DNA of 4,121 nucleotides from a virus (Duplodnaviria > Heunggongvirae > Uroviricota > Caudoviricetes): the IMG/VR virus record IMGVR_UViG_2541047739_000010; one strand, 5' to 3'. The notes below the pieces were generated by a model. The model searched no databases, was not told the DNA's origin, and was given only the letters and a program-made list of their open reading frames with translations. Every line of letters begins with the position of its first letter. Position 1 is the first letter of the stretch. This document shows, one piece after another, positions 85-4,121 of this stretch. A program made the translations under genes and the position numbers.

Positions 85-276
85 ATGTTCGCGCTGGTAC
101 TTTTTGTTTGCTACCTGGATGGCGGTTGTGAAGATATTGTTGTGGATGTCTACAACACGGAACAGCAGTGTCTTTATTCTATGAGCGATCAACGGATCCG
201 CCATGGCGGTTGTTTTCCGATTGAGGATTTTATAGATGGTTTCTGGCGACCTGCACAGGAATACGGTGATTTTTAA
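85..276 (+). CDS. yebW: Small conserved protein YebW (63 aa). The frame is open from window position 1, but the start is most likely the internal ATG at 85.
   Basis: The translation from the ATG at 85 (MFALVLFVCYLDGGCEDIVVDVYNTEQQCLYSMSDQRIRHGGCFPIEDFIDGFWRPAQEYGDF) matches E. coli YebW as I remember it. A GGGGA Shine-Dalgarno sits at 76-80, 4 nt upstream of that ATG, and the stop is TAA at 274-276. The gene lies next to pphA as in E. coli K-12. The upstream part of the frame cannot be judged because the window starts at 1. Confidence 0.7.
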   Translation: MFALVLFVCYLDGGCEDIVVDVYNTEQQCLYSMSDQRIRHGGCFPIEDFIDGFWRPAQEYGDF

Positions 277-933
277 TTATTGCAATTGCACAAGAGTCAG
301 TTCGCCCCCAAAGACAGCACCGGTATCAATATAATGCAGGTTGCCAATATCCACGCGATGGCGCAACGGTGTATGACCAAACCAGAAATGATCAGCACCT
401 GTAATTCCCTGCCCTTTTTGGCGTTCACCTAATCGCGAGCGGCTCCACAAGACCTGATGCAAATCAACGTCCTTTTGCCATTCATAAACATCATCCGGAT
501 AATCGGCATGGGCAATAACATGTTTGCCGGTGCGACTGTGTACTTCAAGAATAAAGGGCAAATACTGACATTTTTCCAGCGCCGTTTTCGCTTGTTTCTG
601 TTGATAATCTGCCAGCGCAATAAACCAGTCGCCGCCATTCATCAACCATAAAGACATCTGCCGGGATACCAGCGCATCCATCGCCATCTGTTCATGATTG
701 CCTCTTACCGCACGAACCCAATGTTGTTCCAGTAACTGCAGGCAACGTAAACTTTGCGGCCCACGATCGATAACGTCTCCCACTGAGATAAGTAAATCTC
801 GCCACGGATCAAAACGACAATGCCATAATTTGCGGCGCAACTGCTCAAGACAACCGTGTATATCGCCTGAAAGCCAGATATGTCGCCATTGATGACCCGC
901 AATTCTCTGATAAACGGGCGCAGGCTGTTTCAT
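277..933 (-). CDS. pphA: Serine/threonine protein phosphatase 1 (calcineurin-like metallophosphoesterase, PP-lambda family), 218 aa.
   Basis: The translation MKQPAPVYQRIAGHQWRHIWLSGDIHG... carries the metallophosphoesterase signature motifs GDIHG, GDVIDRG and GNHE in the canonical order and matches E. coli PrpA/PphA from memory. The six-frame ORF begins one codon earlier at a TTG (936); the ATG at 933-931 with a GGAGG about 9 nt upstream is the likely true start. The stop codon directly abuts the yebW stop. Confidence 0.93.
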   Translation of the reverse strand: MKQPAPVYQRIAGHQWRHIWLSGDIHGCLEQLRRKLWHCRFDPWRDLLISVGDVIDRGPQSLRCLQLLEQHWVRAVRGNHEQMAMDALVSRQMSLWLMNGGDWFIALADYQQKQAKTALEKCQYLPFILEVHSRTGKHVIAHADYPDDVYEWQKDVDLHQVLWSRSRLGERQKGQGITGADHFWFGHTPLRHRVDIGNLHYIDTGAVFGGELTLVQLQ

Positions 934-1067
934 CAATATTTTCCTCCCGCGCTAAAGATCACATAATCTTAACAAGAATGTTAAAAAACGCTGGACTCAG
1001 ACAGTAGAGTGTGTGTTATGGTTGACTATAAAGTCAGCGAAGGGAATGCTTCTGGCTTTTAACAGAT

Positions 1068-1098
1068 AAAAAGAGACCGAACACGATTCCTGTTTTCG
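1068..1098 (-). ncRNA. sdsR: 3'-terminal remnant of the sRNA SdsR (RyeB): terminator stem-loop plus U-tract only, no promoter or body. Interpreted as the att core copy at the prophage-host junction.
   Basis: The plus strand reads AAAAAGAGACCGAAcACGATTCCTGTtTTCG, which is about 29 of 31 identical to the reverse complement of the SdsR 3' end as I recall it (...CGAAUACAGGAAUCGUAUUCGGUCUCUUUUU). Similarity ends abruptly at 1098/1099: the remaining ~70 nt of sdsR are absent and replaced by AT-rich sequence. The position about 130 bp from the pphA start fits the K-12 pphA-ryeA/sdsR-yebY order. The comparison is from memory, not a search. Confidence 0.55.
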
Positions 1099-1279
1099 TC
1101 AACAAACAACAAAATCTTTTAGAATTAATGTGTTAAATAAATTTATGCTCATCTTTTAATCTCTAACACGTACTATTACATATTAATACATTCAATTAGT
1201 TACCATTTTTTTCGAGTTTTTTAGAGAAATTTTCGGGAATATTTCAGGTCAATCCATGCATACACAAGCAATTCCTGTA

Positions 1280-1309
1280 TTGAATAATTCCGTAGCAATT
1301 ATGTAAAAT
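1280..1309 (+). promoter_or_regulatory. Candidate sigma70-type promoter: -35 TTGAAT (1280-1285), 18-nt spacer, -10 TAAAAT (1304-1309).
   Basis: This is a sequence-motif match only. The -10 keeps the critical TAnnnT positions and is preceded by TG. The predicted start near 1316-1318 coincides with the 5' arm of a stem that is followed by a Rho-independent terminator. Confidence 0.3.
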
Positions 1310-1316
1310 CATCTCC

Positions 1317-1400
1317 GGCTGATTTTCATTCAAACTCGCGCTATCGAACGTCCATCAGCCAGCCGCAGTATCCTGTCATGACAAGTTACTGCGGCTTTTT
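1317..1400 (+). ncRNA. Candidate ~85-nt structured small RNA in the prophage end region (hypothetical).
   Basis: Stem-loop 1 pairs GGCTGAT (1317-1323) with ATCAGCC (1354-1360) around a ~30-nt loop. It is followed directly by a 9-bp GC-rich terminator hairpin (1362-1395) and a T-tract (1396-1400), with the candidate promoter just upstream. No ORF of meaningful length lies in the interval. Confidence 0.3.
1362..1400 (+). terminator. Rho-independent terminator for plus-strand transcription; possibly weakly bidirectional.
   Basis: A perfect 9-bp stem, GCCGCAGTA (1362-1370) with TACTGCGGC (1387-1395), encloses a loop containing the palindrome TGTCATGACA and is followed by TTTTT (1396-1400). On the minus strand the hairpin is preceded by an A/T-rich tract but not followed by a U-tract, so it should work mainly for the plus strand. 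It lies 12 nt from the stop of the 95-aa gene. Confidence 0.6.
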
Positions 1401-1411
1401 ACTTTTTATAT

Positions 1412-1699
1412 TTAACGGTTCAACATCCAGATCAGCAGACACGCCACCACCGGCACAGCAAAATCCATCAGGCTTGCCACATCCCATGCACGTGGATCAA
1501 AACCGCCCCACCAAGGCATGTTAATCCGCTTGCCATGCCCGAACATTTCAATCCAGCGATATTCTGCCTGGGTGTGTTCACGCGCAATGAAGAACGTACA
1601 ACCGGCTATCGCCCCGTAAGCCCAGTTTCCGGTAAAAAGACCAGCCAGTACCTGCACCGCCACGGCACAAAGCGCATGAAGTATCGACGTGATATCCAT
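1412..1699 (-). CDS. Hypothetical small membrane protein (95 aa, 2-3 predicted transmembrane segments); prophage cargo gene of unknown function.
   Basis: The ATG at 1699-1697 has an AGGATAG Shine-Dalgarno about 7 nt upstream. Hydrophobic segments are ILHALCAVAVQVLAGLFTGNWAYGAIAGCTFFIA and VASLMDFAVPVVACLLIWML, separated by a Trp-rich polar loop. By eye the GC content is noticeably higher than in the flanking prophage DNA. It is the last gene before the junction and sits only 9 nt after the preceding gene. I do not recognise the family. Confidence 0.7.
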   Translation of the reverse strand: MDITSILHALCAVAVQVLAGLFTGNWAYGAIAGCTFFIAREHTQAEYRWIEMFGHGKRINMPWWGGFDPRAWDVASLMDFAVPVVACLLIWMLNR

Positions 1700-1708
1700 C
1701 TGCTATCC

Positions 1709-1987
1709 TTAAAACCACTCCCTGAGCGGGCGCTCTGGTGTAACCACCCACTCACGGAACACGGAATCATCAAATCCATCGTCAAGAAGACGGATATTAA
1801 CAAAGTACCCTTCGTTTCGCGTGTATTCTGGTTCTCCGTCATCAGAAACATCTGTCTCCCTGAACGTAAAACCAATCTCATCAACCAGAACGGCATTCTG
1901 CAGCTCTTCGTCCTCTTCCCAGTTAAGTTTCCTGAGAAATGCCCTGAAATCTGCTTTATCACTGAAACGCAACGTGAAATCTCTCAC
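1709..1987 (-). CDS. Hypothetical acidic protein (92 aa) translationally coupled to the tail fiber gene; possible non-canonical tail fiber chaperone or accessory protein.
   Basis: The GTG start at 1987-1985 overlaps the tail fiber TGA stop (1986-1984) as GTGA; there is no internal Met. Composition is protein-like and rich in Asp/Glu, whereas the overlapping 118-aa ORF in another frame is Arg-rich junk. It shows no resemblance to lambda Tfa as I recall it. Confidence 0.6.
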   Translation of the reverse strand: MRDFTLRFSDKADFRAFLRKLNWEEDEELQNAVLVDEIGFTFRETDVSDDGEPEYTRNEGYFVNIRLLDDGFDDSVFREWVVTPERPLREWF

Positions 1988-4053: not shown

Positions 4054-4064
4054 ATCCACTCCAC

Positions 4065-4090
4065 AAAAAAGCCCGCCTGAACCGGCGGGC
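4065..4090 (-). terminator. Rho-independent terminator on the minus strand, immediately upstream of the tail fiber start.
   Basis: A perfect 7-bp GC stem, GCCCGCC (4071-4077) with GGCGGGC (4084-4090), encloses a 6-nt loop. The A-tract at 4065-4070 on the plus strand is a U-tract after the hairpin on the minus-strand transcript. It lies between the end of the upstream (unseen) gene and the stf ribosome-binding site. Confidence 0.55.
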
Positions 4091-4121
4091 TGTCATAACA
4101 CTGTGTTACCTGGCTAATCAG

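Follow-up and report, generated by a model that had tools for sequence, protein, structure and literature searches.

The window analysed here, a stretch of 4,121 nucleotides from the IMG/VR virus record IMGVR_UViG_2541047739_000010, carries at positions 1067-1400 what is very probably the integrase-distal junction (attR in the lambda convention) of a lambdoid prophage integrated in the terminator of the small RNA gene sdsR, also called ryeB. This type of event is already known, and the window presents an ordinary case of the published ryeB hot spot. The second junction and the integrase gene described below come from near-identical genomes, represented by the Escherichia coli isolate AF3, which are separate from the source genome of the window. 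The features of the window are collected in Table 1.

Table 1. Features of the window, with positions, strands and the observations on which each assignment rests.
Feature	Position	Strand	Evidence and remarks
yebW, host gene	85..276	+	Same position annotated in AF3 (L001 20085-20276) and in K-12; the mechanical ORF runs from base 1
pphA, host serine/threonine phosphatase 1	277..933	-	AF3 and K-12 annotation; PF00149, E=2.6e-15
ryeA 5' part, ~64 nt kept	1030..1093	+	K-12 ryeA start at L003 1567 corresponds to window 1030
att core, imperfect direct repeat, 32 bp	1067..1098	.	Four-way comparison of attB, attP and the two junctions
sdsR (ryeB) 3'-end remnant	1068..1098	-	Terminator 3' half-stem, loop, U-tract and degenerate 5' half
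Strand-exchange segment ACGATTCCTGT	1083..1093	.	Holds the 7-nt terminator loop GATTCCT (1085-1091) between the stem halves
Tail-side attachment arm, AT-rich	1094..1400	.	Alignable over 32 distinct variants up to the hairpin, with divergence beyond it
Candidate arm-type integrase sites TTTCGAG, TTTCGGG, TATTTCAGG	1210..1246	+	Direct-repeat family D1, shared with the integrase-proximal arm
Intrinsic terminator at the outer edge of the att arm, hairpin followed by TTTTTACTTT	1361..1405	+	Stem 1361-1396, -19.9 kcal/mol
ORF, 95 aa, function unknown	1412..1699	-	phrog_1443, E=8e-57; no Pfam match; hypothetical in AF3
ORF, 92 aa, function unknown	1709..1987	-	phrog_1361, E=1e-40; no Pfam match
Side tail-fibre gene, 691 aa	1984..4059	-	PF08400, E=2e-65; phrog_1419; in AF3 a tail fibre, followed by lom and gpJ

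The left part of the window is bacterial. Positions 1-1093 are colinear with the yebW-pphA-ryeA/sdsR region of E. coli K-12, with 16 mismatches and no indels, which bears out the sequence-only reading of the left flank as host DNA upstream of pphA. The same comparison places the breakpoint: identity with K-12 stops at 1093, inside the SdsR terminator, and similarity collapses past 1098. Position 1094 is T where K-12 has A, one G is lost after 1098, and the sequence from 1101 onward is unrelated. In the annotation of K-12 MG1655, ryeA (1923066-1923337, plus strand) and sdsR (1923104-1923207, minus strand) lie between pphA and yebY. Coordinates in the K-12 locus used here (L003) equal window coordinates plus 537, so the 3' end annotated for sdsR falls at window position 1068. 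A host spacer of 130 bp is present between pphA and the sdsR fragment, and pphA now lies on the same strand as the phage DNA and downstream of it. The ryeA promoter is located just upstream of 1030 and in the window reads into phage DNA. An Rfam scan of the window gave a partial SraC/RyeA match of 25.4 bits against a gathering score of 37, with good alignment in the first ~40 positions only.

To the right of the junction, the window has the composition and content that had been described from the letters alone, namely AT-rich DNA lacking the rest of sdsR, followed by phage tail DNA. The GC fraction is 0.31 over 1101-1360 versus 0.48 in the flanking genes, and the tail-fibre gene with its PF08400 domain lies beyond. 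The two small ORFs between the tail fibre and the att site occupy a typical moron position, and no terminator was called between them and pphA, which is encoded on the same strand. At 4062-4095, between an upstream lom-like gene and the tail-fibre gene, there is a GC-rich inverted repeat with a minus-strand T-run (agcccgccggttcaggcgggctttttt) that resembles an intrinsic terminator within the late region. Tandem Repeats Finder returned nothing on the window, and two weak snoRNA-type Rfam matches in the tail-fibre gene, far below their gathering scores, were set aside as chance.

The whole window is present in five complete E. coli genomes, the best of which is isolate AF3 (NZ_OZ547117.1, 99.0% identity); across 940-1290, the near-identical genomes match the window at 100%. 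In AF3, the interval between pphA and yebY is occupied by a lambdoid prophage of ~45.6 kb, and the junction is one of its two ends. On the phage side, the order is lom, gpJ, tail, head, terminase, lysis, replication, repressor, recET, excisionase and, at yebY, a tyrosine integrase; portal and capsid genes are also annotated, together with one pseudogene in the lysis region. The integrase and excisionase genes lie 128 bp from the core, beside sdsR and yebY, and the interval between the integrase and yebY holds a complete sdsR (RF00111, 118 bits) along with ryeA sequence (RF00101, 179 bits). Two copies of ACGATTCCTGT are found in AF3, 45,605 bp apart. The intact sdsR that had been expected at the other prophage end, outside the window, is thus seen beside the integrase in a 99%-identical genome, and so is the second copy of the core, 45.6 kb away. 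Compared with K-12, the SdsR rebuilt at the integrase end has a stem G-U pair changed to A-U and its tail changed from UCUCUUUUU to UCUUUUUUU. Its terminator has a predicted energy of -16.8 kcal/mol, versus -16.5 for K-12, and is called by the terminator scan.

The uninterrupted site, defined as at least 80% of the 601-bp site covered in one place, is found in K-12 and in 5191 of 5426 complete E. coli genomes. The window junction (at least 80% coverage) occurs in 228 of the 5426, and the integrase-side junction likewise in 228; of the 235 interrupted sites, 228 can be attributed to one integrase/att module. The equality of the two junction counts speaks against a different explanation, in which the window would stem from a decayed prophage or island scar whose tail-side end alone survives in the source genome, the integrase end having been deleted or rearranged. 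Prophage decay is common, the window displays only ~3 kb of phage DNA, and AF3 itself has the lysis-region pseudogene. However, the AF3 element has int, xis, repressor, replication, lysis, terminase, portal, capsid and tail genes, and all three phage ORFs of the window are intact, so we regard such a scar as unlikely.

Carriers of the junction include the EHEC serotypes O26 (O26:H11 11368), O103 and O45:H2, in which the arm is the same and the cargo beyond it differs, nleG7 being one example. In the locus of O26:H11 str. 11368 (L005, 3144-4600), the att arm is followed by this type III effector gene, which replaces the two small ORFs of the window; the integrase/att module is therefore common to EHEC prophages with different cargo. 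The remaining interruptions include insertion sequences such as ISApl1 and IS1. One site interrupted at a different base (H69) proved to carry an ISApl1 insertion and no second phage. At NZ_CP051158.1 (L107, 7304-8300), ISApl1 lies a few bases from the sdsR terminator, and genome H40 has IS1 in the same intergenic region; therefore, the AT-rich spacer beside the terminator also draws IS elements. In the IMG/VR loci L007-L044, the junction 25-mer occupies 1083-1107, the window's own coordinate, in more than 20 viral contigs, which means that prophage calls at this site routinely take in ~1.08 kb of host DNA comprising yebW, pphA and the 5' end of ryeA. The junction 25-mer had no match in the species-representative genomes, and a search of the same set with the integrase retrieved Shigella flexneri and one E. 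coli only.

The att sites could be compared in all four forms. The two core copies, at window 1067-1098 and AF3 L002 16598-16567, are identical at 29 of 32 positions and differ at 1073, 1082 and 1094. A contiguous arrangement of integrase-side arm, core and tail-side arm is present directly downstream of the integrase gene in the deposited phage PP818812.1 ('Actinobacillus phage vB_Apl-pPE4', here pPE4; L004 1190-1260), and a second attP form was found in IMG/VR locus L020. The K-12 attB is gataaaaagAGACCGAAcACGATTCCTGTaTTCGgTCcaggg, and the pPE4 attP is caattaaaaaaAGACCGAAtACGATTCCTGTtTTCG-TCaacaa. The window junction consists of the left part of attB and the right part of attP, and the AF3 integrase junction of the left part of attP and the right part of attB. 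The four sites form an exact reciprocal set, in agreement with the earlier proposal of an integrase core site at the 3' end of an RNA gene. Excision from the lysogen would be expected to yield the attP and attB products caattaaaaaaAGACCGAATACGATTCCTGTTTTCGTC and gataaaaagAGACCGAACACGATTCCTGTATTCGGTC, respectively. The tail-fibre region of PP818812.1 is 91-95% identical to swine E. coli chromosomes, its integrase is 97% identical to those of E. coli prophages, and its attP matches E. coli sdsR; the stated host, A. pleuropneumoniae, looks doubtful.

The position of the exchange was examined by a marker test on about 100 junctions, using a tail-side 25-mer found in 38 IMG/VR contigs and an integrase-side 28-mer found in 61, together with further loci. 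Base 1082 is C in all 34 junction loci with an E. coli flank (L001 and L005 included), across several diverged phage arms. It is C in L021 and L037 too, whose left flank is another one, apparently also of host type. Where the left flank of a contig is phage-type, the base is T or A. The base following CCTGT is T in all tail-side junctions. On the integrase side, it is the host-type A in 59 sequences and T in the attP forms of pPE4 and L020; two further integrase-side sequences with T run into unidentified sequence. Because the markers at 1082 and 1094 follow their flanks, the exchange falls between them, in 1083-1093, and it is within this segment that we infer the exact cleavage points.

It is conceivable that strands were exchanged to the left of 1082, in AGACCGAA, and that the markers record attB/attP polymorphism and do not show where the crossover took place. 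The Rfam consensus lends this some weight, as it has U/A and not C/G at the position of 1082, and T is therefore to be expected there in some enterobacterial attB sites. Nevertheless, the base is C in K-12 attB and T in both attP forms, and the C persists in every E. coli-flank junction whatever the phage-arm variant, as well as in L021 and L037, which makes an exchange to the left of 1082 very improbable.

The segment 1083-1093 is at a distance of 16-26 nt from the 3' end annotated for sdsR (1068), and within ryeA it covers nt 54-64. The loop and the two stem halves of the terminator form the arrangement that would be expected for a 7-bp overlap between inverted core-binding sites. Targets in tRNA anticodon loops have such a 7-bp overlap between inverted core-binding sites. 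A degenerate second copy of the left part of the core (AAAAAAGACCGGAATACAGAAATTCG) is present ~85 bp from the true core (L004 1125-1150 and L002 16685-16655) and also in a Salmonella relative (L006 ~828-852); it may represent an additional site for the integrase, or a trace of an older att.

We propose that the prophage was established by Campbell-type site-specific recombination into the Rho-independent terminator of sdsR (ryeB). The phage attP carries a ~32-40 bp imperfect copy of this terminator, and a lambda-family heterobivalent tyrosine integrase would have exchanged strands within ACGATTCCTGT, with the two stem halves probably acting as inverted core-binding sites. At the integrase end, sdsR is rebuilt with a phage-supplied 3' half-terminator and U-tract, and at the tail-fibre end, seen in the window, the host's original 3' half-terminator is fused to phage DNA.

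The remnant left at the tail-fibre end was compared with the K-12 31-mer AAAAAGAGACCGAACACGATTCCTGTATTCG, which is the sdsR 3' end in plus-strand reading. Window 1068-1098 is identical to it at 30 of 31 positions, and none of 200 dinucleotide-preserving shuffles gave such a match, so the ~31-nt copy of the SdsR terminator noticed in the sequence-only reading is real. The possibility that a terminator-like sequence with no relation to sdsR arose here by chance or convergence, for which the short length of the match is the sole point in favour, is refuted by these figures and by the contiguity of the fragment with 1067 bp of colinear host DNA, which also shows that it is no stray copy, and its probability is negligible. 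The sequence-only reading had counted two departures from canonical SdsR. Aligned with the actual K-12 sequence, the remnant has a single substitution, T1094; C1082 is the K-12 base and is not a difference, since the stem of K-12 SdsR contains a G-U wobble there. The A-G mismatch described for the remnant stem does exist.

The Rfam covariance model of SdsR/RyeB (RF00111) found no match in the window, even at E<=1, and sdsR is therefore present there as a fragment only. The hairpin of the remnant, which carries a bulge as well as the A-G mismatch, has a predicted energy of -3.5 kcal/mol versus -15.8 for the native one; it is not the minimum-energy fold, and its fold z is -0.03 versus -3.0. A terminator scan called nothing terminator-like at 1068-1098, though it called the terminators in K-12 and at the other prophage end. 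The notion that the remnant is a working terminator shielding pphA was rejected on account of the hairpin energy, the fold and the scan, and these predictions point to a terminator that is non-functional in the window.

The integrase itself is of the lambda type. It aligns with lambda Int (5j0n) over its full length (E=5e-72), and its motifs TGQRRED, KTG, FHEIRSL, LLGH and MY align with the lambda motifs TGQRVGD, KTG, FHELRSL, LLGH and QY, which contain what we take to be the lambda catalytic residues R212, K235, H308, R311, H333 and Y342. Domain searches identified PF00589 (61.6 bits) and, at residues 3-61, PF09003 (28.1 bits versus a cut-off of 22). The latter is the lambda arm-binding domain, and the integrase also matches PDB 1kjk. 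The pPE4 integrase is 97% identical and HK022 Int 41% identical; among 50,697 phage records, close relatives were limited to pPE4 and one Salmonella prophage record.

The tail-side arm is conserved as a module with this integrase and is contiguous with the integrase arm in pPE4; in other lambdoid prophages, the sequence in common with the window starts only at 1276 or 1326. The most invariant part of the 32-arm alignment is the block 1200-1246. On the integrase side, the arm has two to three tandem TTTCGRG copies (AATTTCGGG repeats), located 40-70 bp from the core on the same strand. All four TTTCGRG sites in a 5.5 kb stretch of pPE4 lie inside attP on one strand, a count that is not significant alone (15/200 shuffles). 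The Salmonella relative ZC-S1_prp has tandem AATTTCGAGG repeats at the same place. The TTTCGRG repeats in the two arms are plausible candidates for arm-type sites.

At the outer edge of the tail-side arm, the 1361-1405 hairpin was missed by a simple terminator scan. Other variants also have a hairpin at this place, though the sequence of its stem differs. Its location in the free phage is just downstream of int and attP, which is the position of sib/tI in lambda, a resemblance only. In the integrase-proximal arm, a promoter-like TTTGCA-16-TACAAT (L002 16626-16599, minus strand) points over the core into the antisense strand of sdsR. With one site versus 0.9 expected, the evidence for it is weak; the Rfam SraC/RyeA model starts at about this place (AAUUAAAAAAAGACCG). 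In lysogens, this element could stand in for the ryeA promoter.

The ryeA/ryeB locus had been named in the sequence-only reading as an insertion hot spot of enterobacteria, and this agrees with the literature. In Salmonella, the last 23 bp of ryeB serve as the att site of PhiW104 and other elements (Balbontin 2008, J Bacteriol 190:4075, as summarised in PMC7380047), and the same summary reports decreased RyeA and increased RyeB in PhiW104 lysogens. The hot spot is also cited by Bobay 2013, and 'RyeB' is already in use as a site name in automated island callers (PMC10111431). An explicit E. coli account of sdsR as an att site was not found in the literature searched, which is not proof of absence. 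As far as that summary describes the Salmonella case, the E. coli junction agrees with it in target, the last ~23 bp of ryeB, that is, its terminator, internal to ryeA, where the window junction also falls. The geometry is the same as well, since lysogeny swaps the 5' part of ryeA and keeps ryeB. The attP of the Salmonella phage ZC-S1_prp is related and shares the core, and the integrase of this phage is 73-74% identical over the aligning parts. In contrast to the Salmonella hot spot, the present case involves an E. coli host, a lambda-like siphovirus-type carrier, and other sequences in the arms and around the core; the changes in RyeA and RyeB given in the summary are those of Salmonella.

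With the lambda and HK022 systems, the element shares an Int aligned over its full length, an arm-binding N-terminal domain, an excisionase gene beside int, and long AT-rich attP arms with repeated motifs. It differs from them in its target, an sRNA terminator instead of the gal-bio intergenic attB, and in the TTTCGRG consensus of its candidate arm sites. A third comparison is with integrases targeting the 3' ends of tRNA and tmRNA genes (Williams 2002, as cited in PMC3603311). In such systems, the crossover takes place in a 7-nt loop with a symmetric stem, and the displaced 3' fragment is found at the far prophage end. The crossover in a loop and stem, the phage-borne replacement 3' end and the displaced fragment at the far end are common to those targets and to sdsR, and in both the RNA gene is restored because the phage carries a replacement 3' end. 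Unlike tRNA and tmRNA genes, sdsR is a regulatory sRNA gene with an overlapping antisense gene, and therefore restoration of the sense gene would still disrupt the antisense partner and the co-transcribed downstream pphA.

In K-12, pphA is transcribed mainly from the sigma-S promoter of sdsR, through read-through of the sdsR terminator; the reported heat-shock promoter of pphA is located still further upstream and is nearly inactive, and the sigma-70 promoter from which ryeA is transcribed is on the pphA side (Choi et al. 2019, PMC6610125). Given this layout and the insertion, both pphA promoters would lie 45.6 kb away in the lysogen, where pphA is placed behind phage ORFs of the same strand. 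No sigma-70-like promoter was found on the pphA (minus) strand in 900-1750. The insertion would thus separate pphA from the sdsR and heat-shock promoters, and the ryeA promoter from sdsR. The orphaned ryeA promoter, with its start near 1030, would be predicted to give a chimeric RNA stopping at the 1361-1405 hairpin.

The value of these results lies mainly in annotation: the boundary of a prophage family is set to the base, with host DNA ending at 1093 and the att core at 1067-1098, and the Salmonella ryeB hot spot is extended to E. coli. Tentatively, and with less than even confidence, the insertion might go beyond a neutral att event and amount to a lysogenic conversion of the regulatory kind, present in about 4% of E. 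coli, EHEC O26, O103 and O45 among them. If this were true, pphA would depend on read-through from same-strand phage genes, the terminator ahead of it having been destroyed. The sigma-70 ryeA promoter, which is the normal brake on SdsR through antisense degradation and transcriptional interference, would be removed, and the RpoS-dependent SdsR, reportedly a toxin, would be freed. The orphaned ryeA promoter would, in turn, produce a chimeric RNA of ~370 nt ending at the phage hairpin. In this way, lysogeny at sdsR may rewire both the SdsR/RyeA pair and the expression of pphA.
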